DNA of 64,000 nucleotides from an uncultured Pseudomonadota bacterium. Lineage in GTDB: Bacteria > Pseudomonadota > Alphaproteobacteria > RF32 > CAG-239. A model generated the notes under the pieces. That model made no database searches. It was not told the origin of the DNA and saw nothing but the letters and a program-made list of their open reading frames with translations. The translations under genes and the position numbers were made by a program. Position 1 is the stretch's first letter, and every line of letters begins with the position of its first letter. The stretch is taken from positions 47,416 through 111,415 of the forward strand of contig CASFNB010000007.1 of NCBI GenBank assembly GCA_949295915.1. Direction: 5' to 3'. Positions 3,745 to 26,540 of this stretch are shown in pieces.

Positions 3745-5067
3745 TTATGCAGCTTCGCCTTTTAATCTCTTATAGGCTTTGGCTCTACCCATCAAAGGCA
3801 TCAAGATTTTGAGTTCCGGTCCGTTTTCTTGAGCGGTTAAAGCTTTTCTAATCGGGTGAAACAAATCTTTGCCTTTTTTGCCGGTTTTGGCTTTAACTTC
3901 ATTAACCCAAAGATTGAAGGTTTCTTCATTCCAGGGTTCTGCCGGCAGCAAATCGGCTGCGGTTTCGGTCAAAACAGAATCTTCAATTATCGGTTTAACT
4001 TCTTTGTGGCAAATGTCTTCCCATGCCGTAATATCTGTTACAAAAGTCAAATTACCTTTAACGGCATTCCAGAAGTTTTCATCGGCATCAATACGACCTT
4101 TGACATATTCATACGGTGCACCGTGAATAAATTTGGTATTGAACATTTCCAATTCTTCAACATCAAATTTGGGTTGTGCTCTGCCGATTTTGCTCAGATC
4201 CAAAGATTTTGCCAAACTTTCCAAATCATAAAACGGTTCAATGCTTTCAGACGTACCTAATTTTGCCAAGAAAGAGCTGATGGCCATGGCTTCAATGCCT
4301 TCGGCCTTCAATTCTCTGACACCCAAGCTGCCCAAGCGTTTGGACAATTTTCCTTCTTTACCGGTCAATAACGGCAAGTGTCCGAAAGTCGGCACATCGC
4401 CGCCCAAAGCTTCAAACATTTGAACTTGTGATGCGGTGTTGGTAACGTGGTCTTCACCGCGGATAATATGGGTGATTCCGAAATCATGGTCATCAATAAC
4501 CGATGGCAAGTGGTACAAAAAGCTGCCGTCTTCACGAATGATAATCGGGTCGCTCAAATTTTTGGCATCATATTTTACTTCGCCTCTAACCATATCATTC
4601 CACTTAATTTCACCATCAACAAGTTTGAAACGATAGTGCGGTTTGCGGCCTTCTTTTTCATATGCGGCAATTTGCTCTGCCGTCAACTTCAAGGCGGAGC
4701 GATCATAAATCGGCGGCAGACCTTTGTTCATCAGTCGTTTGCGCATAAACTCCAATTCTTCCGCCGTTTCGTAGCAAGCATATATTCTGCCTTCCTTCTT
4801 TAATTGTTCGACAACTTCGTTATATCTGTCAAATCTTGCCGATTGTCTGGCTTCTTCTTCCCAAACAAGTCCGAGCCATTTTAACGAATCTCTCAAAGAA
4901 AGCTCATATTCTTCTTTAGAACGCAACTTATCGGTATCATCAATACGGAGCATAAACCTGCCGCCCAACTTCTTTGCCAACAACCAGTTAAACAATGCCG
5001 TTCTGGTGTTGCCGATGTGCATATAACCGGTCGGCGATGGTGCAAATCTGACTTTTATTTCACTCAT
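3745..5067 (-). CDS. gltX: glutamyl-tRNA synthetase
   Basis: RFAPSPTGYMHIGNTRTALFNW (HIGH region) and KLSKR. The start is placed at the ATG at 5067 (MSEIKVRFAPSPTG) rather than the GTG at 5082 used by the track. Confidence 0.9.
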   Translation of the reverse strand: MSEIKVRFAPSPTGYMHIGNTRTALFNWLLAKKLGGRFMLRIDDTDKLRSKEEYELSLRDSLKWLGLVWEEEARQSARFDRYNEVVEQLKKEGRIYACYETAEELEFMRKRLMNKGLPPIYDRSALKLTAEQIAAYEKEGRKPHYRFKLVDGEIKWNDMVRGEVKYDAKNLSDPIIIREDGSFLYHLPSVIDDHDFGITHIIRGEDHVTNTASQVQMFEALGGDVPTFGHLPLLTGKEGKLSKRLGSLGVRELKAEGIEAMAISSFLAKLGTSESIEPFYDLESLAKSLDLSKIGRAQPKFDVEELEMFNTKFIHGAPYEYVKGRIDADENFWNAVKGNLTFVTDITAWEDICHKEVKPIIEDSVLTETAADLLPAEPWNEETFNLWVNEVKAKTGKKGKDLFHPIRKALTAQENGPELKILMPLMGRAKAYKRLKGEAA

Positions 5068-13333: not shown

Positions 13334-14134
13334 ATGAATATAATACTTAAAAGAATTTTGGGAGCAAGTCTCGCGCTCGCGGCTTTCTCCTTTATACCCT
13401 ACGCTAAAGCTCAAACCTGTGTCACCCCGCCAACTTGCGAAAGCTTGGGATATACACTGACAGAAACTGATTGTGAAGGGCATAATTTTCTTAAATGTCC
13501 GTTTGACACCAGTGTCGATTATTGTGACTCCGGTAGCGGAAGTTTTGGATTTTATGATAATCCACCTATCGGTGCATTTCTTTACTCTGATATGAATTGC
13601 TCCATCTCCTTAGATAAGAGTAAAACCGTAATCGGGATTATTTTTGATACAGAACACCGTTTAGCGATTGCTTTAAACTCAAAGAGTGCTTCTTGGTCAT
13701 CACAACTATTTGATATTCCCGAATTACCAAATATAGAGATAGCTAGTGATACGGACAGAGGCAAAGAAGTAATATCTGATTGGTCGGGAAAAAGTAATAC
13801 CAAGATAATTATCGATTATTGCCGAGCTAATGGTTATAGTTGCCCAGCTGCTGAATATGCTTATTCATATACAACGGAAGGTACTAAAGCCGGTGATTGG
13901 TATTTACCGGCAGCAGGCGAATTAGAAGCTATGTCTGTTAATATAAGTGTTTTAAATTCAAGTTTATCTTTAATCGAAGGAAGCACGCGTCTGTATAATT
14001 CTTATTGGTCTTCTAACGAAATGTCTACAGATTATGCTTGGGATATGACTTACGATAGTAGATACGGTAGTTTTTGGGGTTACGTCCCTTATAAGAGGGA
14101 TACTCATCCCGTTCGTCCGGTTATTCAATTTTAA
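13334..14134 (+). CDS. secreted Cys-rich protein, paralogue 2, with a DUF1566 (Lcl C-terminal-like) domain
   Basis: Signal peptide plus AQTCVTPPTCESLGYTLTETDCEGHNFLKCPFDTSVDYC, shared with the ORF at 1688. The C-terminus GDWYLPAAGELEAM...YWSSNE...AW...HPVRPV fits the DUF1566 pattern. Confidence 0.7.
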   Translation: MNIILKRILGASLALAAFSFIPYAKAQTCVTPPTCESLGYTLTETDCEGHNFLKCPFDTSVDYCDSGSGSFGFYDNPPIGAFLYSDMNCSISLDKSKTVIGIIFDTEHRLAIALNSKSASWSSQLFDIPELPNIEIASDTDRGKEVISDWSGKSNTKIIIDYCRANGYSCPAAEYAYSYTTEGTKAGDWYLPAAGELEAMSVNISVLNSSLSLIEGSTRLYNSYWSSNEMSTDYAWDMTYDSRYGSFWGYVPYKRDTHPVRPVIQF

Positions 14135-14139
14135 GCAGC

Positions 14140-14763
14140 TCATATTATCCCAATTTTTTGTGCATTGACCAGCGCTTGGGTGCGATTAGTGGCATTTAAG
14201 GCTTTAAGCATTGCATTGATATGCAATTTTATTGTAGCTTCACTAACGCCCATTTCATAAGCAATCTGCTTGTTGGACAGCCCTTTGGATATATATTGCA
14301 AAACTTCAAATTGTCTTGTTGTCAGATTTCCGTTTTTATTTTCATTCGGCACTTTGGATGTTCCCAAACTTTCCAACAAAATCGGAGGTAAATATGTTCC
14401 TCCGTCCAAAACCAATTTCAAGGCCGCTGATATGATTTTGCTCTCTGAGCGTTTGGGAATATAACCACTCACTCCTCTTTCCAGCGCCTGACGAACCACT
14501 TTGGAATCTTCTGTTGCCGATATGACAACAAAATGGGCTTGCGGTGCTTTTGTCATTAAGTCGGCCAAACCTTCCTGCCAGTTTTTGTCCGGCATATCTA
14601 AATCAACCAACACTAATGCAACCTCCGAATTTTCTTCAAGCTGCTTTTCTGCTTGTATATAACTCTCGGCTTGGATAATTTGCGCCTTGTTATCCAACTG
14701 TTCCAATGTCAGTTTTAAGCCATCGCGAAATAAGGCATGGTCATCGGTTATCAATATTTTCAT
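14140..14763 (-). CDS. NarL/FixJ-family response regulator (receiver + LuxR-type HTH), orphan
   Basis: MKILITDDHALFRDGL...VLVDLDMPD receiver domain, then C-terminal LTTRQFEVLQYISKGLSNKQIAYEMGVSEATIKLH. No histidine kinase is adjacent. Confidence 0.85.
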   Translation of the reverse strand: MKILITDDHALFRDGLKLTLEQLDNKAQIIQAESYIQAEKQLEENSEVALVLVDLDMPDKNWQEGLADLMTKAPQAHFVVISATEDSKVVRQALERGVSGYIPKRSESKIISAALKLVLDGGTYLPPILLESLGTSKVPNENKNGNLTTRQFEVLQYISKGLSNKQIAYEMGVSEATIKLHINAMLKALNATNRTQALVNAQKIGII

Positions 14764-16762: not shown

Positions 16763-16826
16763 GTTGCTTTTTTCTTGAGGATTACGTATATTCTTGACGA
16801 AATATTTATCATTAAATTTTAAGTAT

Positions 16827-17567
16827 ATGGAAAATTATTATTTTTGGTTGTCTGCATTTAGCAGAAAAAAAATTTTGTTACGGACATTTGTAAAATCTTG
16901 GAAATGGACACTTCCTTCTTTGATCGTTGCCGGATTGGGGTATTTTTTATTGTATGACATTTTAAAAGCCTCCCATTTTAATGCTTTTTTATCTTTGTTG
17001 ACTTCGCTCAGCTTATTTGCCGTGGTCAAATATAAAGATAAACTCAAAAAGAAAAATATCTTTCTTTTTCGGGCATCTTATACGGCTGCTACCGGCATCA
17101 TTTTGTTTTGGATGTTGATTGCCCTCGGTTTACCGAAATTGGGAATTTTGTTAAGTCTGGCATTGGTCTTGTTTTTCATTTCTCCGTTTCTTAATTATCT
17201 GCCGTTTAAGTTATCTAAAGAAAGGATAATGTTTACTATTTGGATTTTGATAATTTTGGCATTGGGAATTGATTTTATAAACTCATTTAACGGAGATTTT
17301 GCTTGTCGTTTTGCCTCCTTTGCCTTTTGTTTCGGCTTTATGCTGTTTAATGCCTATGAGCTCAAACAAATGGATAAAGATCTGCAATACGGATTAACAA
17401 AAGAAGATATAAAAAAAATGACCGATGATTGGTGTTTTGATATTTTTATCAATTTCCTCGGAATGATTTGTTTTGCCGAGGCAGTTCGTCTGGTGGCAAA
17501 AATGATTTACGTTACGCCTGACAAAAAAGTTGTTCTGCCTCAATCTTCTCAAAAAGTTGTTTCTTAA
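16827..17567 (+). CDS. polytopic membrane protein, tandem paralogue 1 (possibly a very divergent BI-1/YccA-like protein)
   Basis: ATG at 16827. About 7 hydrophobic spans. The C-terminal FNAYELKQM...DIFINFLGMICFA resembles the BI-1 family C-terminus (weak, by eye). Confidence 0.4.
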   Translation: MENYYFWLSAFSRKKILLRTFVKSWKWTLPSLIVAGLGYFLLYDILKASHFNAFLSLLTSLSLFAVVKYKDKLKKKNIFLFRASYTAATGIILFWMLIALGLPKLGILLSLALVLFFISPFLNYLPFKLSKERIMFTIWILIILALGIDFINSFNGDFACRFASFAFCFGFMLFNAYELKQMDKDLQYGLTKEDIKKMTDDWCFDIFINFLGMICFAEAVRLVAKMIYVTPDKKVVLPQSSQKVVS

Positions 17568-17650
17568 CGAAACAACTTTTTTTTATTGCCTTTTAGACAA
17601 AAAAATATTATAAAGTCTTTTGCTATTGTATAATTATAAAATTTAAGCTT

Positions 17651-18361
17651 ATGGAAATTATTAATCAAAACAAATCTCTTCCTATTTTTTGGTTGATGTT
17701 GTTTAAAAGTTTTTGCATGTTCTGTACCTCTTTTGTGTGCGGTTGGATAATTCTTAACTTATTTCCGGATTGGATTGAGCTCGATTTCTTGTTCTCGGCC
17801 AAAATATCCGTGGCAGGCATTTTGCTCTTCGGGTGGCTCCTTGTTTATCCAAAGTTTATTTGTCAAAAAAATTGGGGATTGGTATTTATTTCGTTTTTAG
17901 GCGGAATTTTTTGCTCAATCTTACTCATGTTTTTTGGCTTTGCAAATTGCTTGTTTGCTTTTGCTATTACTAATCTCGGTTTGTTTGGCGGGATTTTAAT
18001 CGGAAATTATTGTCAAAATAAAATATCGGCATCTCTGTTCATCAAAATTGTTGCTGCCATTTTTATTTTGATGTTTTTGCTTTACATCTTTTCTGTTTAT
18101 AAATCTGGAACATTTTTAATTTATCACCCCGCATACTTGGCTTTTTCTCTGCTGGCTTGGCTGCATCTGATTTACGTTTGCTCCAAAAAAGAGCAGATTA
18201 TCTCAGAACTGCTATCTTCTCAAGAAAAGCGAGCTTATCATAAATTTGTGATCTTCTTTTTCTTAAATTTTATGGCTCTGGCTCCTTTTATTGATTGCAG
18301 TAGAATTGTGGTTTTAATTTATTTTCAATTTTTGCATCTTTTTAACGTTAATCATAAATAA
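17651..18361 (+). CDS. polytopic membrane protein, tandem paralogue 2
   Basis: 236 aa, about 7 hydrophobic spans, same size class and layout as its neighbours, very AT-rich. Confidence 0.4.
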   Translation: MEIINQNKSLPIFWLMLFKSFCMFCTSFVCGWIILNLFPDWIELDFLFSAKISVAGILLFGWLLVYPKFICQKNWGLVFISFLGGIFCSILLMFFGFANCLFAFAITNLGLFGGILIGNYCQNKISASLFIKIVAAIFILMFLLYIFSVYKSGTFLIYHPAYLAFSLLAWLHLIYVCSKKEQIISELLSSQEKRAYHKFVIFFFLNFMALAPFIDCSRIVVLIYFQFLHLFNVNHK

Positions 18362-18364
18362 ATT

Positions 18365-19084
18365 ATGGAAAGTTTTGTTTTATCACGAAAAGATTGTCGT
18401 GCCATCTATTGGAAAATTTATTTTCTGATTGTGCAACTGGTTGCTGTTAACTTTGTTATTGCTTGGCTAATGACCTATGTCGATAATATCAGTATTTGGT
18501 TTGATGATTATACTCAAGAAAATGTACCTTGGGCTTTTACGCCGTTAGCTCATTTCTTGAGCCTTATGCCCTTTTTTCTGATGATTGTTTATACTTTTAG
18601 GCAAATCGGACATACTTTTAAAATGACATTCATCAACTTGCTTGTCATTTCTCTTGCTGTTTATACGCATAAGCACATGCTGAAACTAGGTTGGGAATTT
18701 ATTTTAGGTTATTATCTTGCAGCTTTAATTGCTATGGGAATTCTTATATTCTCCGCAACCTTACTCAAGATAAAATTAAAACCTAATTATAAAAGCGTCA
18801 GATTTGTATTGATACTTTTATGGACTTTATTCTTAATATCTTTGCTTATCAATGATACTTTAGCTTTTATTGTAAACTTGCTTATTAGCTTGTACGGATT
18901 ATGCTTGGTCTTTTTGGAAACGCAAAAATTTCGGTCTCGTTTAGTAAAAGTACGAACGCAACAACAGCTCGATAATCTGATGTATCCTTTCATCCTCAAT
19001 ATGATTGGAAATTTCTTCCTGATAAATTTTTATTTTGATACGGAAAAATTATTTATTAAATATTTCTCCGTTGATAGAGATTAA
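18365..19084 (+). CDS. polytopic membrane protein, tandem paralogue 3
   Basis: 239 aa, starting 3 nt after the previous stop. About 7 hydrophobic spans and a C-terminal VFLETQKF...ILNMIGNFFLINF. Confidence 0.4.
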   Translation: MESFVLSRKDCRAIYWKIYFLIVQLVAVNFVIAWLMTYVDNISIWFDDYTQENVPWAFTPLAHFLSLMPFFLMIVYTFRQIGHTFKMTFINLLVISLAVYTHKHMLKLGWEFILGYYLAALIAMGILIFSATLLKIKLKPNYKSVRFVLILLWTLFLISLLINDTLAFIVNLLISLYGLCLVFLETQKFRSRLVKVRTQQQLDNLMYPFILNMIGNFFLINFYFDTEKLFIKYFSVDRD

Positions 19085-19136: not shown

Positions 19137-21740
19137 TTAGAAATTGGCTATTCCTGATTGTTCTATATTTAAAACTATATTAGAAACAGACAGCTCTTTA
19201 GCTTCAGTTAACGTAAGAGATGAATCTAATAAGCTACCGACATTCTCAATGTCTTTAATTCCTTGCATAATTTTATTCAATATCTCTTTAGGAGCAGATA
19301 TCTCAACTTTTTTCACTTCTGTTTTTTGAGATACATTTGCTTCTGTTTTAGCTTTTCTTATATAACTTGTTACTTCTGAAATATAATCATATAATTGACT
19401 ATCAATAGAACTTTCTTCAAATAAATTTTTATCAGGCCATTGATTTAAGTGGATTGAATTCTTTTCTCTCCCCCACGGCCTTACCTGATATATTTCCTCT
19501 GTTATAAATGGACAGAATGGCGCAAATACTTTTAAGAAAGTATCTATTGTATAAATTAAAGAAGCTACAGCAGAATTATCTTCTGAAGAATAGGCTCTTT
19601 TTTTGACAATTTCTAAATAATTATCACAAAAATCCCAAAATCTTTTTTCTATTACTTCTAATGCACCAGCATAATCATATGCTTCAAAATATTTACTGGC
19701 CTGTTTTACGCTCTCATTCATTTTTTGCTGCCATGATATATCTGTTGCCTCTGTTATATGCTTTATATAATTTTTATAGTCCTTAAACTGACTAACATCC
19801 ACTATATTAAAGACAAATTTACATGCATTAAAAATTTTGTTAATGAGCTTCTTTCCTTGAGCCATTACCTTTTCTTCAAATGCTGTATCGACACCTAATT
19901 TAGCTCTACTTGCCCAATATCTAACAGAATCCGCACCATAGTTATCTATTAGATGTTGTGGGGTTACAACATTTCCTTTAGACTTGGACATTTTTTTTCT
20001 ATCCGGATCTAAAATAAATCCACTTATTAGGATTTCATTCCAAGGAATAGTATTTTCATGCATTAAAGACTTAGCTATTGTATAAAAGGCCCAAGTCCTT
20101 ATAATATCATGTGCTTGAGGTCTGATATCAAATGGAAGCTTAATTGTTTTATTTTGATTATAGTTTAGAGCAATTTGCGGGGTAAGTGCAGATGTTGCCC
20201 ATGTATCCATTACATCTTTATCCCCCACAAAACCATTAGGCTTATTTCTTTGCGTTTCTTCATAGCCCTCAGGAACATCAGTCATTGGATCTACCGGTAA
20301 CTGTTCTATTTTTGCTATTATAGGCTGAGTATAATCAACTTTTCCATTTTCATCTATCTTATACCATACAGGAAATGGAACGCCAAAAAATCTTTGACGA
20401 GATATGCACCAATCTTGATTTAGCCCTTTTACCCATTCTTCATATCTGGTCTGCATATGTTGGGGTTTCCATTTAATTTTTCTACCGGCCTCTATTAATA
20501 AATCTTTTTTATCTTGAAGTTTTACGAACCATTGACGTGAAGTAACGAATTCAAGAGGGCGATTGCCTTTCTCGTAAAATTTAACCATATGTTTAATGGG
20601 GCGAGGTTCACATTTTAAACATCCTTCTTGTCGAAGCATACTAACAATTTTTTCTCGAGCCTGTTTTGCGCTCAAGCCAACTAATTGGCTATAAAACCTA
20701 TTGGCTTTTTCGGCATTTTTTGAAACAAATGGTTCTTGACCGAATGTTATATTCAATAGACACCCATCTAAACCTATAATTTGTTTTAAAGGTAATCCTG
20801 AGGCTTTCCACCATGCGACATCGGCAGCATCACCAAATGTACATACCATCATTATTCCAGTACCTTTATCCTTTTCCGCATGCTCTGAGGGGATTATTTC
20901 TACAGGCGTTTCAAATAACGGAACTATTGCTTTTTTTCCAAAAAATTTCTTATATCGTTCATCATCGGGATGTGCTACAATTGCAATACATGCCGGCAAA
21001 AATTCCGGTCTTGTGGTTGCAATAGTTATTGTTTCATCACTATCTTCTAGTTTGAAATTTATGTCATGGAAGAAACTTGATATTTCTTTATCTTCTATTT
21101 CTGCTTGAGCTACTGCTGACTGAAATGTCACATCCCACATTGTAGGGGATTCAACTGACTTGACTAATCCTTTATTATATAAATCAATAAAAGATGCTTG
21201 AGAAATTTTTATACTTTCAGGACTTATGGTTGTATATTTAATATTCCAATCATAAGAATGCCCAATATTTCTAAACACGTTTTCAAAGACACCTTCATCT
21301 GAAGCCGTCAAAAGTTCACATGCTTCTATAAAATTTTTACGAGATACTGACTTTTTAGGATTTTCGTCATTTTCTTTATGTTCAAACTGCATATTCTCTA
21401 CATAACTTAATGTCGGATCACATGTGATATTATAGTAATTTTGAACACGTCTTTCTGTAGGTAAACCATTATCATCCCACCCAATAGGATAGAAAACTGT
21501 TTTTCCTTTCATTCTTTGATACCGGGCAATAACGTCTGTTTGTGTATAACTAAATATATGTCCAATATGCAATGATCCTGAAACTGTTGGAGGAGGAGTA
21601 TCTATGACAAATGTTTCCTCTCTTGATCTATTATTATCATAAGCATATGTACCATTTTCTGACCAATATTTTTTGCATCTGGCTTCTATTGCCTGCAAAT
21701 CCATGCGATCATCAAGTTTTTTATTTTCTTTAAATTGCAT
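19137..21740 (-). CDS. valS: valyl-tRNA synthetase, actinobacterial/archaeal-like type
   Basis: 867 aa. TPPPTVSGSLHIGHIFSYTQTDVIARYQRMKGKTVFYPIGWDDNGLPTERRVQNYY, KMSKSKGNVV, and no long C-terminal coiled coil. Much more AT-rich than the flanking housekeeping genes. Confidence 0.93.
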   Translation of the reverse strand: MQFKENKKLDDRMDLQAIEARCKKYWSENGTYAYDNNRSREETFVIDTPPPTVSGSLHIGHIFSYTQTDVIARYQRMKGKTVFYPIGWDDNGLPTERRVQNYYNITCDPTLSYVENMQFEHKENDENPKKSVSRKNFIEACELLTASDEGVFENVFRNIGHSYDWNIKYTTISPESIKISQASFIDLYNKGLVKSVESPTMWDVTFQSAVAQAEIEDKEISSFFHDINFKLEDSDETITIATTRPEFLPACIAIVAHPDDERYKKFFGKKAIVPLFETPVEIIPSEHAEKDKGTGIMMVCTFGDAADVAWWKASGLPLKQIIGLDGCLLNITFGQEPFVSKNAEKANRFYSQLVGLSAKQAREKIVSMLRQEGCLKCEPRPIKHMVKFYEKGNRPLEFVTSRQWFVKLQDKKDLLIEAGRKIKWKPQHMQTRYEEWVKGLNQDWCISRQRFFGVPFPVWYKIDENGKVDYTQPIIAKIEQLPVDPMTDVPEGYEETQRNKPNGFVGDKDVMDTWATSALTPQIALNYNQNKTIKLPFDIRPQAHDIIRTWAFYTIAKSLMHENTIPWNEILISGFILDPDRKKMSKSKGNVVTPQHLIDNYGADSVRYWASRAKLGVDTAFEEKVMAQGKKLINKIFNACKFVFNIVDVSQFKDYKNYIKHITEATDISWQQKMNESVKQASKYFEAYDYAGALEVIEKRFWDFCDNYLEIVKKRAYSSEDNSAVASLIYTIDTFLKVFAPFCPFITEEIYQVRPWGREKNSIHLNQWPDKNLFEESSIDSQLYDYISEVTSYIRKAKTEANVSQKTEVKKVEISAPKEILNKIMQGIKDIENVGSLLDSSLTLTEAKELSVSNIVLNIEQSGIANF

Positions 21741-21834
21741 CTTTTATCTCCATTTAATTTTTTTTGTTATATTAAATCAGATTGAAAAAGTCAATATTTG
21801 CTCATTAATTTATTATTGTCTTCTAAAAAGAAAA

Positions 21835-21862
21835 TTGACAACTAAAAAAACACAACTATTAT
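21835..21862 (+). promoter_or_regulatory. candidate sigma70 promoter for the short peptide gene
   Basis: TTGACA (21835-21840), 16 nt, then TATTAT (21857-21862), about 35 nt upstream of the ATG at 21897. Confidence 0.4.
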
Positions 21863-21896
21863 TTTAATGTATAGTATTTTTTAGAAAGGATTATCT

Positions 21897-21983
21897 ATGT
21901 TAAAAGACTTTAAATTAACAAGACGCAAGCATGCTTATGCTCGCACAATGAAAGCTTCTGTTGACGCAGATTCTTATGAATAA
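21897..21983 (+). CDS. candidate RiPP precursor peptide (28 aa, no Cys)
   Basis: Hand-translated as MLKDFKLTRRKHAYARTMKASVDADSYE*. AAGGA RBS 6 nt upstream, its own promoter, followed by a strong hairpin and then an RRE-radical SAM-SPASM gene. Below the ORF-track length cutoff. Confidence 0.45.
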   Translation: MLKDFKLTRRKHAYARTMKASVDADSYE

Positions 21984-21995
21984 CCTAAACAAATA

Positions 21996-22031
21996 AGTAA
22001 AGGTATTGTTTTTTCAATACCTTTACTTTTT
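21996..22031 (+). terminator. strong intrinsic terminator/attenuator between the peptide gene and the maturase gene
   Basis: AGTAAAGGTATTG (21996-22008), a tttttt loop, CAATACCTTTACT (22015-22027), then TTTT. The 13-bp stem is perfect. Confidence 0.65.
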
Positions 22032-22171
22032 AGATAAAAAATAAGGAAAAATCTAATGGAATATCCTGTATTAATTGTTGTGTCCGTGGAGCATCAGGAG
22101 ATATATATTTACATAATTTCAAAACCGGAAAAGAATATTCGATAGAAAAGTTACATGCAAATATATTAAAT

Positions 22172-23482
22172 ATGTGTAATGGTTTGCATTCACTCGATGA
22201 TATATCATTATCTGTAAATATATCTGTATCTGAAATTCAAGATTTTCTGAATATATTTAAGAATGAAAATCTGCTTAAATATAATTCTTGTCCCAAACAA
22301 GAAATCAATCTACGTTGGAATAACAAAGCACCCTTTTTAAGAGAGGTTCACATTGATATTACGGGAGTTTGTAATTTATTTGGACGTTGTAAGCATTGTT
22401 ATGGACGACAAAATTTACAAAACAGTCATAGAGATGAATTGACCACTGATGAATTATTAACTCTTGTTAATCAAATGGGAGAAATGGGGGTTGCAGATTG
22501 TGTTATTTCAGGTGGTGAGCCTTTTTTAAGACCAGACCTTCCAAAAATTATTAAAGCTTTATCTGAAAATAATATCCATTTAATTGGTCTATTTACAAAT
22601 GGAACGAATTATCGAGAGGATGTTCTTAATGCATTAATTGATGCTCATTATAAAACATTTTTCTTTATCAGTTTAGATGGATATACAAAGGAAGTACATG
22701 AGTTTATGCGTGGTTCCAATACTTATGATAAAACTCTTGACTTTATTGATAAAATTAATCAGCTAGGTTTTCCCGTAATTATTAATACAATGGTTACAAA
22801 ACAAAATGTTAATTCCTTAATGGAATTCTGCCATTTTCTTGAAGGTAAAAATATTAACCGTTGGAGACTAACTGTTCCAAGAGAACAAGGTGAAGCTATT
22901 TTGCATAAAGATTTAATTATGCCTGAATGGAATGATGTTTTCGCATCTTATAAGCAATTGTTAGAATATTGCTTGGTAAAAAAATCAAAAATGAAAGTTC
23001 AAATTGGTTCTATTTTTAAATCAGAACTTTTAGAAGAACCGGAATATTATTTGTATAATGATGGCAATAGTTGTTGTGAATATAAACGTTGGTCCATTGT
23101 CGTTAAACCAAATGGAAATGTTACTCCTTGCACTGCTTTTGACAATTTGATTTTAGGTAATATTAAAAAAGAAAAATTATCTGATATTTGGTATTCTGAT
23201 GCGACACAAGCTGTTAAAAATTTTCCACTAAAACTTTCAGATTGTAAAGATTGTAAAATTAGACAATACTGCGGAGGCGGCTGCAGAAAAATGGCTTGGG
23301 AATTACATGGTAGTTTTTTTGCTAAAGATGATTATTCCTGTCCTCTTTATGAATTTGCAGCAGAAGTTGCTCAGCCCATTTTAGAAAGACACGGAATAAA
23401 AGCATTAAAATTAGAAAAACCACAAAAACATAATTATAACTATTCTAAAATAGATAGTTATATATTAAAAACTAATTGTTAA
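22172..23482 (+). CDS. radical SAM/SPASM-domain peptide maturase with an N-terminal PqqD-like RRE (the 5' end appears frameshifted; the reading frame is open back to 22034)
   Basis: GVCNLFGRCKHCYG cluster motif, GGEPFL, and a SPASM tail (CCEYKRWSIVVKPNGNVTPC...LGNI...CKDCKIRQYCGGGCRKMAW). The in-frame upstream extension ...NCCVRGASGDIYLHNFKTGKEYSIEKLHANILNMCNGLHSLDDI looks PqqD-like. Confidence 0.85.
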   Translation: MCNGLHSLDDISLSVNISVSEIQDFLNIFKNENLLKYNSCPKQEINLRWNNKAPFLREVHIDITGVCNLFGRCKHCYGRQNLQNSHRDELTTDELLTLVNQMGEMGVADCVISGGEPFLRPDLPKIIKALSENNIHLIGLFTNGTNYREDVLNALIDAHYKTFFFISLDGYTKEVHEFMRGSNTYDKTLDFIDKINQLGFPVIINTMVTKQNVNSLMEFCHFLEGKNINRWRLTVPREQGEAILHKDLIMPEWNDVFASYKQLLEYCLVKKSKMKVQIGSIFKSELLEEPEYYLYNDGNSCCEYKRWSIVVKPNGNVTPCTAFDNLILGNIKKEKLSDIWYSDATQAVKNFPLKLSDCKDCKIRQYCGGGCRKMAWELHGSFFAKDDYSCPLYEFAAEVAQPILERHGIKALKLEKPQKHNYNYSKIDSYILKTNC

Positions 23483-23600
23483 TTTATTCAAAAACATACC
23501 TGATTAATTTAAAGTTATCTTATAAACCGCAAAATGCCCTCAACAGAATTTAACCTGTTTGGGGGCAAAAAATTGCAGGTCGGCACACTATAAGGTCAAG

Positions 23601-24917
23601 CTATTTGCCGACCTTTGCCATCACTCGTTCAATTTCTTTCTGAACTGCGGCTTCAACAATAGTCGGTAAATTGGCTTCCAACCAAGCTCTGGTTTGAGCA
23701 TGAATTTCTTTTTGCGCATAAGCAACAATATCTACATTCTTGGCCATTTCCGCATTAACTGAAGAGGCTACAATGCCTTGGATTACACCTTCAACAACTT
23801 GTTCAATGGTCTTGTTAGCATTACCCATACCGGAAACAGCGGTGGAAATTTCGGGTGCGGGTTCTTCTGTTTTTTCCGAATGTTCTTGTGCTTGCTCGGC
23901 AAACATTTTGGCAAAATTGTTAATGATATCTGCCGAAACATCTGTTGCATCTTCTTTTTCTTTACCATTTTCTTCTATGGTTACATCTTCCTCAACCGGA
24001 ATTTCTACAATCTGTTCTTCCTGAATATTGTTATCAACCGATTGTTCTTCCGGCACTTCGGATGGCTCTTCTTCGGGAATTGATATTTCTTCCACTTCAC
24101 TGAACTCGGCTTCGGGAATCTCTTGCGGATCTTCATCAACAGCGGCTGGAATTTCGTTTATCTGACTAACGGAAGAAATATCTTCCGTTTTCTCTTCAAG
24201 AAAAGAATCGTCAAATTCGCTTTGCTGAATATCATCTTCCGCGGTTAAAATATTTTCCGCATCTGTTTGTTCTTCTGAAACAAAATCCATAAAACTATTA
24301 TTTTCTTGTTCAAAAATCGGATCCGAAGTAATATCTATATCCGAAACATCAAAAATATTATCCTCAATATTGTCGCTTCCGCTTTGTTCAATATTTTCAT
24401 TTGATGACATTTCGGAATCTTCAGACATTGCCTCTGAGGCTGATTGCAATATTTCATCTATGTTAAATGAAAAATCATCCTCAGGCATTTTTTCCGATTC
24501 AGAAGATGCCATAACATCCTCTTGAACAACAGATTTTTCATTATCTTCATCAAAAGCTTCATTTTTAAAATCGGGCAAAACCATATCATCGGGAGCTAAG
24601 AGAGGCTCATCTTCTTTCGGTGTTATATCAAAATCAGGACCGATTTCGTCCAGCTCAATTTTAGAATCGCCTTCTTGTGAGGCATCATCAACAATCATCG
24701 CTTTTGATAAATCAAAGACATCATCTTCCTTATTTGGTTCGACAGACTGAAACTCTGTCGGAACTGCAGGTGTAACATCCTCAGGTTCTGAAGGCATTGT
24801 TTCCGCTGTCGTTTTTTCTTGACCATCATTTTCTAGAATATCTTTGATTGAAGATAATATATCTTCCATGGACATATCATTCTGTTGTTCTTCGGGACTC
24901 ATTAATTTTTCCACCAA
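23601..24917 (-). CDS. popZ: PopZ-like polar organizing protein (DUF2497) with a greatly expanded acidic linker
   Basis: The N-terminal MSMEDILSSIKDILEND matches Caulobacter PopZ MEEILASIRRIISED. The C-terminal WLEANLPTIVEAAVQKEIERV matches WLDQNLPRIVETKVEEEVQRI. About 300 aa of D/E/S/P-rich low-complexity sequence lies between them. Confidence 0.65.
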   Translation of the reverse strand: MVEKLMSPEEQQNDMSMEDILSSIKDILENDGQEKTTAETMPSEPEDVTPAVPTEFQSVEPNKEDDVFDLSKAMIVDDASQEGDSKIELDEIGPDFDITPKEDEPLLAPDDMVLPDFKNEAFDEDNEKSVVQEDVMASSESEKMPEDDFSFNIDEILQSASEAMSEDSEMSSNENIEQSGSDNIEDNIFDVSDIDITSDPIFEQENNSFMDFVSEEQTDAENILTAEDDIQQSEFDDSFLEEKTEDISSVSQINEIPAAVDEDPQEIPEAEFSEVEEISIPEEEPSEVPEEQSVDNNIQEEQIVEIPVEEDVTIEENGKEKEDATDVSADIINNFAKMFAEQAQEHSEKTEEPAPEISTAVSGMGNANKTIEQVVEGVIQGIVASSVNAEMAKNVDIVAYAQKEIHAQTRAWLEANLPTIVEAAVQKEIERVMAKVGK

Positions 24918-24971: not shown

Positions 24972-26348
24972 TTAATCAACAGATATTGAGAACCATTTGC
25001 CTTTTGTGTCTTGATAATATTTATCGGCATCATACAAATCAACATCCAACTTCAAATCCGCTGCCGTTAATTTACCCATGGCAAGCAAAAGATTTAAGCT
25101 TGATACATAGTAGTTTCTTCTGGCTTTTACTTCTTCTACATTTGAGTTCAAAAGTTCTTGATAAGCATCCAACACATCCAAAATGGTGCGGTTTCCCAAA
25201 GCCTCTTCTTTTTGAACGCCGTCAAGAGCAATTTCATTGGCTTTAACTTGTTCTTTGATAGATTTGATTTTCGAATCGTTAGAGACCATATACTCCCATG
25301 CACTTGATACCAGAGATTTTACGGAACGTTCCGTTTCCAGTAATTTTTCTTGAGATTGCCATTTCAAATACTTACTTTGGCGAATTTCGGCTCTATTTTT
25401 GCCAGCTTCATACAACGGAACGGTCATATTTACTCCGACTTCAACACTATTATTTTTTATTTTAGCCTCATTGGCATCCATGTCATTTTCAACATTCATG
25501 GCTGACGCATCTAAAGAAACAGACGGCAGTAAGGCTCCCGTATTGTAGGAAACATTATAGTTTGCAGCGTCAAATGAATGTTGTGCCGTTTTTATGCTGT
25601 AATTATTTTCCAAGGCATAATTCATGGCTTCATCCATGCTTTTCGGCAACATTCCCGATATATCTTTCGGTTCGGTCAAATCTTCGGGTTCACTTCCTAT
25701 TACCTCTTTATAAACAGCCTTTGAGGCTGCCAATGTTCCTTCTGATGAAATTCTATCAGAAACAGCTTGTGCATGACGAGCTCTGGCCTGAGAAACGTCG
25801 GTTCTGGTCACCTCACCGACATTGAAACGCTGGATGGTTTCATCAAGACGTTTTTTCAGCAATTTTTCGTTATTCATCTGTAATTTTACGATTGCCTGAT
25901 TTTGTAAAACATCCATGTAGGCTGTTGCAGCATCCAAAAACACGGTTTGTTCAACACTATACAAATTATTTTGTTCTGCTTTAACCGAGCTATCGGCTTT
26001 CTTTACGGCATTTACGGTTTGGAATCCGTTAAATATCGGCTGTGACAATGTTGCTCCATAGCTGGTTGTGCTTCCGTCCGTATCTGCATCATCCAGAAGC
26101 GGATTTCCTCCGGGATTTTCCGTAGAACCGCTGGCTTGGCTGTATCCTGCAGTCAATGCTATACTTGGACGATATCCCGAACGAGCTATAGCTACATTTT
26201 CATCAACCGAGCGTAAATAAGCTCTTTGAGCTTGCAAAGTCGGATTAGATTTATATGTTTCACTTAAAGCTTCAAATATTGTTGTTGCCGACGCAGGCGT
26301 CGTTATGGCACTCGCCACAAGCAATCCTGCCACAAAAGTTTTTTTCAT
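24972..26348 (-). CDS. tolC: TolC-family outer membrane efflux protein
   Basis: Signal peptide MKKTFVAGLLVASAITTPASA (start at the ATG at 26348 with a GAGG RBS). Two repeated OEP halves (e.g. YRPSIALTAGYS and ALLPSVSLDAS). Confidence 0.85.
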   Translation of the reverse strand: MKKTFVAGLLVASAITTPASATTIFEALSETYKSNPTLQAQRAYLRSVDENVAIARSGYRPSIALTAGYSQASGSTENPGGNPLLDDADTDGSTTSYGATLSQPIFNGFQTVNAVKKADSSVKAEQNNLYSVEQTVFLDAATAYMDVLQNQAIVKLQMNNEKLLKKRLDETIQRFNVGEVTRTDVSQARARHAQAVSDRISSEGTLAASKAVYKEVIGSEPEDLTEPKDISGMLPKSMDEAMNYALENNYSIKTAQHSFDAANYNVSYNTGALLPSVSLDASAMNVENDMDANEAKIKNNSVEVGVNMTVPLYEAGKNRAEIRQSKYLKWQSQEKLLETERSVKSLVSSAWEYMVSNDSKIKSIKEQVKANEIALDGVQKEEALGNRTILDVLDAYQELLNSNVEEVKARRNYYVSSLNLLLAMGKLTAADLKLDVDLYDADKYYQDTKGKWFSISVD

Positions 26349-26540
26349 TAACGTTACCTCTAAAACTTGCATTCTAAATTGTTTTGATTATATGTTATTA
26401 TCATAATTTTGCAACGGATTTTATTAAAAAACCTATAACTATTTAACGATTATTTTTCTTAAATGTTTCATCTTATTAACCATATTTCAAACATTTTTTT
26501 CTATAACTTGGATAAGTCAGTATGTAAGCCATGGGAGGAA

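Follow-up and report, generated by a model that had tools for sequence, protein, structure and literature searches.

A probable precursor-maturase pair of an uncharacterised radical SAM-SPASM RiPP-type family, recurrently found beside valS

The window analysed here, by which we mean the whole stretch of DNA that was studied, comprises 64,000 nt from an uncultured member of the Alphaproteobacteria (RF32; CAG-239) and corresponds to positions 47,416-111,415 on the forward strand of contig CASFNB010000007.1 in assembly GCA_949295915.1. Our subject is a pair of genes on its plus strand: a gene for a peptide of 28 amino acids, followed by a stem-loop and by a gene for a radical S-adenosylmethionine (SAM) enzyme with a SPASM domain. 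Judging from sequence and predicted structure, we put the probability at about 0.8 that the 28-codon open reading frame (ORF) encodes a precursor and that the downstream protein, which has a predicted RiPP recognition element (RRE), is its maturase, the two representing an uncharacterised family of the ribosomally synthesised and post-translationally modified peptide (RiPP) type. The features general to this class of maturases are found, namely a radical SAM motif, a SPASM domain with auxiliary-cluster Cys, a predicted RRE and an adjacent, co-conserved precursor. The system thus appears to work like an RRE-dependent radical SAM-SPASM RiPP system, yet it belongs to no named family. Its specific chemistry is much less certain than the assignment of precursor and maturase.

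The peptide-maturase locus

The pair is preceded by a putative sigma-70-like promoter on the plus strand, in which TTGACA (21835-21840) and TATTAT (21857-21862) are separated by 16 nt. With 11 of 12 positions matching, it is the best of 17 promoter-like matches that a promoter scan returned for the region; shuffles of this AT-rich DNA give 12.2 +/- 3.2 matches, and only the top match is notable. The promoter sequence is identical in six other assemblies of the same species. A Shine-Dalgarno sequence, AAGGA (21886-21890), lies 6 nt upstream of the ATG at 21897, where the gene for the putative precursor starts; this gene (21897-21983) translates to MLKDFKLTRRKHAYARTMKASVDADSYE, 28 aa. Promoter, ribosome-binding site and ORF are all present, by sequence and by scan, as an earlier note on this DNA had described them.

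The peptide gene is followed by an intergenic stem-loop (21995-22028) and by a second AAGGA Shine-Dalgarno sequence (22043-22047), which lies 8 nt upstream of the ATG of the maturase gene at 22056. The main maturase frame runs from 22061 to 23482 and, from translation, Pfam, AlphaFold2 and Foldseek, holds the predicted RRE, the radical SAM core and the SPASM domain. All these features are on the plus strand. A search of 21600-22200 against Rfam (E <= 1) returned no known RNA. The guanine-cytosine (GC) content of the pair is 0.29 (21500-23500), compared with about 0.30-0.39 for the genes on either side and as much as 0.45 farther off. This low GC is compatible with horizontal acquisition, a weak indication by itself.

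Conservation of the short peptide

The earlier note had named, as a test of its proposal, a short ORF next to homologues of the enzyme that is conserved at the amino acid level. Where upstream DNA is present, nearly all loci of the family have such an ORF ahead of the enzyme, ending 5-100 nt before it. The homologous ORFs carry strong Shine-Dalgarno sites, AAGGAGGTG- or GGGAGGTGA-type, at the same place. Examples of the peptides they encode are MLKGFKLIRRKHAYARTMKASVDADSYSW, MLKNFVLKKRSNVASRTLKDAVDMDAE, MLKVFRLVPRKCMRAHTLKASVDSFGPDD and ...VHTKASVDMDLPD.

In the window peptide the leader covers approximately residues 1-16 (MLKxFxLxxR...) and the core approximately residues 17-28 (T-M-K-A-S-V-D-A-D-S-Y-E). 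An alignment of 20 distinct peptides shows no variation at K19, V22 or D23 and at least 90% conservation of R10 and T17, so that the conserved core reads T-[LM]-K-x-[AS]-V-D. At the invariant positions every synonymous codon occurs, that is both Lys, all four Val and both Asp codons. Because the residues are invariant with all synonymous codons in use, and because the ribosome-binding sites are strong, the pattern is the signature of selection on the peptide at the level of the protein sequence.

Tyr and His, which in the window peptide stand in HAYAR and DADSYE, occur in the alphaproteobacterial clade only. The alignment has no conserved aromatic column; both Phe (...SFG...) and Tyr (...DSYE) are specific to clades. 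Cys is absent from the window peptide; elsewhere it is sporadic and found in leaders only, and none is conserved in the core. The peptides end in acidic tails, and the length of the C-terminal tail varies.

These observations bear on the chemistry that had been proposed from the window alone. There, Tyr, His and other residues of HAYAR and DADSYE had been considered for a link of the PqqE, streptide, ryptide or triceptide type; they turn out to be restricted to one clade, and the fallback of a new chemistry, offered at the same time, is the better choice. The conclusion that sactipeptide or ranthipeptide thioethers are excluded still stands, as the family core lacks a conserved Cys.

In sister clades the peptides keep the same register, as in ...QLKVAIHPVG(P/I)D(D), ...WLKLPLNAGPGPGD, ...TPNGMVDSFGPSD and ...RTHASVDMDQPD, and retain L-K-x-x-[VIL]-[DHN]...G-P-D with unchanged spacing. 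Over the wider group, the constant elements are an aliphatic residue (V/I/L) followed by D/H/N, usually a Lys three residues earlier, and an acidic tail of the G-P-D type. NCBIfam (E <= 1) has no match for the window peptide or its 19 homologues, nor does Pfam for the window peptide.

Two further observations concern the peptide genes. One sister-clade pair (L175:314-2387, peptide ...TPNGMVDSFGPSD) has a HicAB toxin-antitoxin pair and an integrase of the phage type as neighbours, a setting that suggests mobility. In the window, a hairpin of 10 pairs including G-T lies within the peptide ORF, over the RKHAYAR codons (21923-21946); it is probably incidental, as a comparison by eye indicates that it is apparently not kept in a 71%-identical relative (L007).

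The enzyme and its family

Pfam recognises a Radical_SAM domain (E 2e-27) and a SPASM domain (PF13186, E 2e-11) in the enzyme, and these domains together with the invariant Cys described below bear out the radical SAM core and SPASM tail read from the sequence before. The AlphaFold2 model of the intact protein, here called P0001 and taken from sister assemblies, has a pLDDT of 91 and a pTM of 0.91. Residues 3-78 of the model form a beta-beta-beta-alpha-alpha-alpha-beta winged helix with a pLDDT of 88-96, and this N-terminal winged helix aligns with the RRE-containing proteins SuiB, CteB and TigE. In addition, the alignments of a family hidden Markov model to CteB and TigE start within their RREs. 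According to the model, the N-terminus of the maturase is a winged-helix RRE.

At the level of sequence the enzyme matches PqqE, CteB, SkfB, SuiB and TigE. In Foldseek the top match is SuiB, which aligns along the entire protein (463-470 columns, E 7e-18); next come SkfB, PqqE, TigE, the anaerobic sulfatase maturase (anSME) and ChlB.

Cysteine motifs were counted, and NCBIfam models scored, for 26 members of the family. The radical SAM cluster motif has the form CX5CX2C (CNL[FY]GxCKHC) in 22 of the 26, including the window enzyme (CNLFGRCKHC), and the canonical form CX3CX2C in four; the three Cys themselves are invariant. A SPASM motif, CX2CX5CX3C, is present in all 26 together with four further invariant Cys, and the invariant Cys of the SPASM domain are C341, C342, C360, C398, C401, C407, C411 and C430. 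With the window protein and with all 26 members, every NCBIfam model stays below its cut-off. The best score is that of the sactipeptide maturase StsB, with about 136-145 bits against a cut-off of 625, and ScmE, NirJ, PqqE, WgkB, AhbD, MftC and DynA likewise score far under cut-off. In databases the members go by no name more specific than 'radical SAM protein' or 'SPASM domain-containing protein'.

The tight family consists of proteins of about 470 aa with 35-74% identity over the full length. From the labels of metagenome-assembled genomes, its hosts are Alphaproteobacteria, 'uncultured Gammaproteobacteria', Patescibacteria (Komeilibacteria, Saccharibacteria), Pseudobdellovibrionaceae and Aenigmatarchaeota, and many members are on metagenome contigs. 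The wider host groups are Patescibacteria, also known as the candidate phyla radiation (CPR), Bdellovibrionota, DPANN and Alphaproteobacteria. The family is mainly concentrated in small-genome organisms, that is in Patescibacteria/CPR, DPANN and small-genome Alphaproteobacteria. Membership in an anti-phage defence family was considered and rejected, since the similarity to viperin is only that of a generic radical SAM core.

In the sister clade with peptides of the QLKVAIHPV type, the RRE part forms a separate short ORF before the radical SAM ORF (L118:3008-3247, L117, and L121/L122 at about 3937-4032). This represents either a truly split RRE or recurrent frameshifts.

The relatives listed above include proteins that do not make RiPPs, and the enzyme might be such a SPASM protein, either an anSME or of the NirJ/AhbD type, with a short ORF that occurs by chance in AT-rich DNA. 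NirJ, AhbD and anSME are indeed among the weak matches, but all such matches are far under the cut-offs. Further, the short ORF is kept across phyla with its own Shine-Dalgarno sequence, and the RRE that the model predicts here is absent from anSME, NirJ and AhbD. For anSME, the match is limited to the core and the SPASM domain (TMq 0.58-0.60), and the peptide has no C/S-x-P-x-R motif, the sulfatase sequence on which anSMEs act. We find this explanation hardly credible; the enzyme falls outside the anSME and other non-RiPP SPASM clades that the earlier note had raised, with anSME as a remote neighbour in structure that lacks an RRE.

The hairpin between the two genes

The stem-loop starts 11 nt after the stop of the peptide gene. 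Positions 21995-22008 pair with 22015-22028 around a loop of TTTTTT, giving a perfect stem of 14 bp with a 6-nt loop and a short T-run. Its energy is -19.2 kcal/mol (z = -4.7), and none of 200 shuffles folds equally well. The perfect stem-loop of the earlier note is thus there, but it has 14 bp instead of 13 and only TTT follows it, so that on the plus strand it is a weak terminator at most. We consider it a probable leaky terminator, RNA-stability or processing element between precursor and maturase.

Among homologous loci, 16 have a spacer of at least 44 nt between peptide and enzyme, and in 15 of them there is a strong hairpin (z from -2.3 to -6.4); the exception is L112 (z +0.6). The hairpin sequences, many of them rich in GC, are unrelated between lineages; a T-run comes after some. 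A 74%-identical relative (L179) has a hairpin of its own. Four loci with spacers of 5-23 nt have no hairpin and keep the peptide. From these comparisons the layout of precursor, hairpin and maturase is conserved at the level of the family, in agreement with the precursor-attenuator-maturase architecture recognised before in the window. The hairpin may set stoichiometry via partial termination, or it may act in RNA stability or processing.

Variation among strains

A point that escaped the earlier note is that the maturase gene of the window is frameshifted at codon 7, by a deletion of ATTA relative to six assemblies of the same species (L001-L006). The frame that starts at ATG 22056 reads MEYPVLIVVSVEHQ... 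and ends at the stop codon at 22143-22145, leaving a 5' fragment of the maturase gene in the original start frame (22056-22145, plus strand). This frame is right for seven codons (MEYPVLI) and is then shifted by the 4-nt deletion at 22069/22070. The frame of the enzyme is open from 22061 only, and its first ATG, GTG or TTG is the ATG at 22172. The six assemblies have gtATTAattaattg where the window has gtattaattg; the four nucleotides missing from the window lie within a short ATTA repeat and are kept in L001-L006. These assemblies encode the intact 476-aa protein P0001, which starts with MEYPVLINCCVRG... and is 100% identical to the window enzyme.

The strain of the window is distinct from the six assemblies (98.5-99.3% identical over 9.4 kb), and in comparison with L001 the ATTA deletion is the sole indel over this length. 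Two of the assemblies, L004 and L005, have changes of their own: a 5-nt deletion (window 21891-21895) cuts the spacer between the Shine-Dalgarno sequence and the ATG of the peptide gene from 6 nt to 1 nt, and the hairpin loop has one additional T (aligned to 22008/22009). Every internal indel among the strains over the 9.4 kb falls in a stretch of about 180 nt inside the peptide-maturase system, and there are zero substitutions among them between 20631 and 22513.

The indels at the system may be loss-of-function variants that segregate in the species, as on/off variation or as decay. For the ATTA deletion of the window, the alternative is that it may be an assembly error. Unless it is one, the maturase allele of the window is probably inactive, because a start at 22172 removes much of the RRE. 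As this allele is frameshifted, experiments should use the intact allele of a sister assembly.

Linkage to valS and other neighbours

The pair sits between valS (19137-21740, minus strand), from which it is divergent, and a popZ-like gene (DUF2497; 23601-24917, minus strand), with which it is convergent. The earlier note had placed the pair there and had mentioned an adjacency of popZ and valS in other Alphaproteobacteria, which is documented for Agrobacterium and Caulobacter (PMC5686542). In L179, popZ is located across valS, but the divergent orientation of the pair and valS is the same. In L007, the protein encoded after the pair was considered as a PopZ and rejected, as it shows no similarity. 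The PopZ-like protein of the window has 438 aa and is extremely acidic, with the DUF2497 match confined to the last 26 residues or so, and its gene is followed by tolC (24972-26372, minus strand).

Dereplication of the loci at 90% enzyme identity gives 35 groups. In 14 of these valS is found within about 1.2 kb of the maturase, which makes it the most frequently linked gene, and it occurs in four orientations. It follows the maturase on the same strand in eight groups, with spacers down to 12 nt (in L177) and 15 nt (in L104), and precedes the pair on that strand in two others (L112, L173). Two groups, the window and L179, have a divergent valS, and the remaining two (L113, L180) have a convergent one after a methyltransferase. 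By simple arithmetic, in a genome of about 1000 genes a given gene has a chance of about 0.4% of being no more than two genes away from valS, and the linkage in 14/35 groups is therefore far above chance. No linkage of the system to tRNA genes was found. To our knowledge, there is no RiPP precedent for repeated adjacency to valS. In L179 the gene calls split the valS beside the pair (L179:951-3571, minus strand) into ORFs of 636 and 244 aa, through either a frameshift or an assembly error of the contig.

The linked valyl-tRNA synthetases (ValRS) are of different types. That of the window is the archaeal-like 'alt_ValS', not the common bacterial type (NF000540, 1098 bits against a cut-off of 900), and those of L097 and L112 are of the PRK13208 type. 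In L101, L104 and L173 the ValRS is of the bacterial type, has about 713-750 aa and ends near position 697 of the 860-position profile; these linked bacterial-type enzymes appear to be without the C-terminal extension. Outside the window, a linked ValRS is either archaeal-like, as in the window, or of this bacterial type. Inherited synteny, or a single unit that was transferred together, is rejected as the source of the linkage, since the identities of enzyme and ValRS are uncorrelated (r = 0.04, 76 pairs). For instance, L097 and L112 have ValRS that are 69% identical and enzymes that are 34% identical, on opposite sides of valS, and for L107 and L177 the corresponding values are 84% and 32%. 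Different clades of the pair, as these sequences indicate, have come to lie next to different types of valS repeatedly.

The layouts with valS downstream permit another explanation, in which the short ORF is not a substrate but a regulatory leader or arrest peptide that governs the hairpin and the expression of the enzyme and the downstream valS. The order of the ORF and then a hairpin 11 nt past its stop codon would suit such a role, and in the eight same-strand groups (spacers of 12 nt in L177 and 15 nt in L104, tblastn gaps of 31-41 nt in 6/8) valS must be read through the hairpin. However, cis control is impossible where valS is divergent (window, L179) or convergent (L113, L180), and in the four loci with the shortest spacers, 5-23 nt, a hairpin would not fit, yet the peptide is kept. 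The conservation of amino acids spans phyla and the distance from core to stop varies; there is one Val codon only, and sister clades have Leu or Ile. Further, the enzyme has a predicted peptide-binding RRE, and the sole conserved peptide nearby is that of the short ORF. We regard a regulatory leader as very unlikely. Attenuation of valS by Val codons, in particular, is rejected as a general explanation because of the divergent and convergent layouts and of the Leu in a valS-linked sister locus.

Other genes recur beside the pair as well. A class I SAM methyltransferase is directly downstream in 12 of the 35 groups, and a GCN5-related N-acetyltransferase (GNAT) of about 140 aa, with a Q-x-x-G-x-G acetyl-CoA loop, is downstream in eight. 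This GNAT is nearest to the amine acetyltransferases YycN, SpeG and RimI, with a weak likeness to the ArsN1 type of arsinothricin resistance. In 4/35 groups a HisKA_7TM histidine kinase is upstream, often with response regulators. The 64-kb window holds no homologue of the companion methyltransferase, GNAT or histidine kinase at E <= 1e-5. The description of the pair as standing alone is thus right for the window but not for the family, which recurs with these genes and above all with valS.

Taken with the linkage to valS, these companions raise the possibility that the peptide is a scaffold from which a small molecule is excised, either a cofactor like those of the pyrroloquinoline quinone (PQQ) and mycofactocin pathways or an antimetabolite derived from Val/Ile/Leu or from Lys. 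The methyltransferase and the GNAT would act on that small molecule, and ValRS would be its target or would have to discriminate against it. Such a scaffold would fit with an exporter or dedicated protease not being conserved beside the pair, with the kinship of the GNAT to SpeG, RimI, YycN and weakly ArsN1, with the recurring valS, and with PqqE as the closest solved structure by sequence. On the other hand, no peptidase or other cofactor-pathway gene recurs, Peptidase_S51 being present in just one locus, and the PqqE and MftC models score far under their cut-offs. The window and L007 have no methyltransferase or GNAT nearby, and the Leu at the aliphatic position of a valS-linked sister locus means that a valine analogue cannot be general. 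An excised small molecule is in our opinion improbable.

Some other genes in the vicinity are of note. Just past valS, three tandem genes (16794-19084, plus strand) encode polytopic membrane proteins (257, 236 and 239 aa) that are distant paralogues, 17-20% identical, and have no match in Pfam or PADLOC. They were rejected as relatives of the HisKA_7TM sensors, as Pfam gives nothing and the hhalign probability is 0.4%. Farther off, a secreted Cys-rich protein (13334-14134, plus strand) has a weak match to the Lcl C-terminal domain (E 7e-4, below the gathering score), and beside it is a LuxR-type response regulator (14140-14763, minus strand) with no kinase adjacent.

Comparison with known systems

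SuiB/StrB, the Lys-Trp cyclase of streptide (PDB 5V1S/5V1T), has the same order of RRE, radical SAM and SPASM as the enzyme described here and a small precursor gene directly upstream. There is also a likeness in the cores, where a Lys is four residues ahead of its partner (KxxxW for SuiB, K-x-x-V-D here). However, the two enzymes are only 17-18% identical, the core of the family is without Trp or any conserved aromatic residue, and the cluster motif is CX5CX2C instead of CX3CX2C. The surroundings differ as well: no shp/rgg quorum-sensing genes or exporter are found here, and the hosts are CPR bacteria and Alphaproteobacteria instead of streptococci. A streptide or WGK type is rejected, since no Trp is conserved (it occurs only C-terminally in the L007 peptide), WgkB gives 112 bits against 650, and the likeness is one of fold only.

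For StsB and CteB (PDB 5WGG), StsB is the top NCBIfam match (136 bits) and the alignment to CteB spans from RRE to SPASM, but the window enzyme is far under the 625-bit cut-off and the window peptide has no Cys. Besides the lack of a conserved core Cys, the thioether type of sacti- and ranthipeptides finds little echo in AlbA, which is matched weakly by 4/26 members only.

By sequence, no solved structure is closer than PqqE (E 6e-22), and the systems of PqqE and MftC resemble the present one in a short precursor with modified residues near the C-terminus and in the absence of an exporter. They differ in that the RRE is fused here and is the separate PqqD or MftB there, and in that neither Glu...Tyr nor a C-terminal Val-Tyr is conserved here. 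A PQQ type is rejected, with PqqE (TIGR02109) at 113.6 bits against 381, Tyr only in the alphaproteobacterial clade and no pqq genes in the flanks; a mycofactocin type is rejected with MftC (TIGR03962) at 96 bits against 265, acidic tails instead of Val-Tyr and no mftDEF genes nearby. The earlier note had likewise seen no other PQQ or mycofactocin genes beside the pair. Cyclophanes of the triceptide or ryptide kind, and Arg-Tyr links, are rejected as well, since no aromatic column is conserved in the core.

The cyclopropylglycine synthases TvgB and TigE have a diagnostic GYW motif that supplies the Tyr ligand of the auxiliary cluster Aux I (PMC10878394). With TigE (PDB 8VPO) and TvgB the family shares RRE, radical SAM and SPASM as well as a similar length, and TvgB and TigE act on Val/Ile, while V/I/L is conserved across clades here. 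The differences are a single motif in the precursor here instead of TVGG or TIGSVS repeats, and a poorer fit in structure, with a TM of 0.54 and a root mean square deviation (rmsd) of 14.7. As GYW is missing in all 26 members, the enzyme is rejected as a cyclopropylglycine synthase. NirJ and AhbD were rejected likewise, on the predicted RRE and on scores far under cut-off. Radical SAM peptide epimerases (YydG/EpeE, PoyD) turn Val, Ile or other residues from L to D by means of a catalytic Cys as H donor. Of these, EpeE is a weak structural neighbour (TMq 0.38); epimerisation leaves the mass of a peptide unchanged.

For the linkage to valS, the nearest comparison is with self-resistance aminoacyl-tRNA synthetase genes that adjoin clusters for inhibitors, as for mupirocin and IleRS, borrelidin and ThrRS, or albomycin and SerRS. 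Here too, a synthetase gene of housekeeping type is repeatedly found beside genes that look like those for a natural product. However, this valS looks ordinary and is possibly the sole copy in small genomes. The analogy may serve as a lead.

Proposed mechanism and its standing

We propose that one promoter drives a transcript of peptide, hairpin and enzyme. The stem-loop would end or stabilise most transcripts, with a minority reaching the enzyme gene, and the peptide would be made in large excess. From its fold and from the conservation of the leader, the N-terminal winged-helix RRE would bind the basic leader MLKxFxLxxR. The radical SAM cluster, held in the unusual CX5CX2C motif, would cleave SAM, and the 5'-deoxyadenosyl radical would act on the core T-[LM]-K-x-[AS]-V-D by removing a hydrogen, most likely from the aliphatic residue (V/I/L in every clade) or from the Lys three residues earlier. 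Two SPASM clusters would accept the second electron.

As a best guess, the product would carry an intramolecular link (-2 Da) between the aliphatic residue, or the Lys, and an adjacent side chain (D/H/N or K); the K-x-x-x-D spacing parallels the K-x-x-x-W of streptide, and SuiB is the nearest fold. The alternative would be epimerisation or dehydrogenation of the aliphatic (V/I/L) residue. In other genomes, the downstream amine-type GNAT and/or class I methyltransferase would probably tailor the product on an amine or a carboxylate.

Several observations weigh against the assignment of precursor and maturase as we propose it. The maturase of the window is untranslatable from its own start, and a start at 22172 would cost it 40 N-terminal residues and, with them, the three beta strands and first helix of the RRE. 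The Pfam PqqD/RRE model does not match the maturase; of the PqqD-like N-terminus claimed before, what stands is the winged-helix RRE seen in the model and in the alignment to CteB, TigE and SuiB. At the hairpin, there is just TTT 3' of the stem on the plus strand, and the scan flags it as terminator-like on the minus strand only. Two sister clades have H or N in place of the Lys, and others have H or N in place of D, so the modified residue cannot be assigned. A protease or exporter conserved beside the pair was not found; a secreted peptide, an intracellular effector and a cofactor precursor are all candidate fates of the product. Finally, translation of the ORF, binding and modification are predictions from sequence and modelled structure.

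Implications

Radical SAM-SPASM RiPPs are a main source of new peptide chemistry. Of those characterised, nearly all have Cys or an aromatic residue as the cross-link partner. The main clade described here keeps only K, V and D, and the wider group only an aliphatic residue and D/H/N; the reaction is thus likely to be new or rare. A full-text search of the literature found nothing on the motifs of the family or on a valS-linked radical SAM peptide system, which speaks for the searched literature only.

Patescibacteria/CPR, DPANN and small-genome Alphaproteobacteria are thought to be poor in secondary metabolism and dependent on other cells. A tentative idea, which we consider rather unlikely, is that the modified peptide is functionally tied to ValRS and is the product of a new type of radical SAM reaction, on the aliphatic or Lys residue of a core devoid of Cys and aromatic residues. 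The peptide could be an inhibitor of the ValRS of a competitor or a host, with the adjacent valS as an insensitive copy, or it could be a modulator or partner of ValRS within the cell. If such a tie were true, a RiPP system would be wired into the translation of small-genome bacteria, and it would possibly drive the horizontal replacement of valS.

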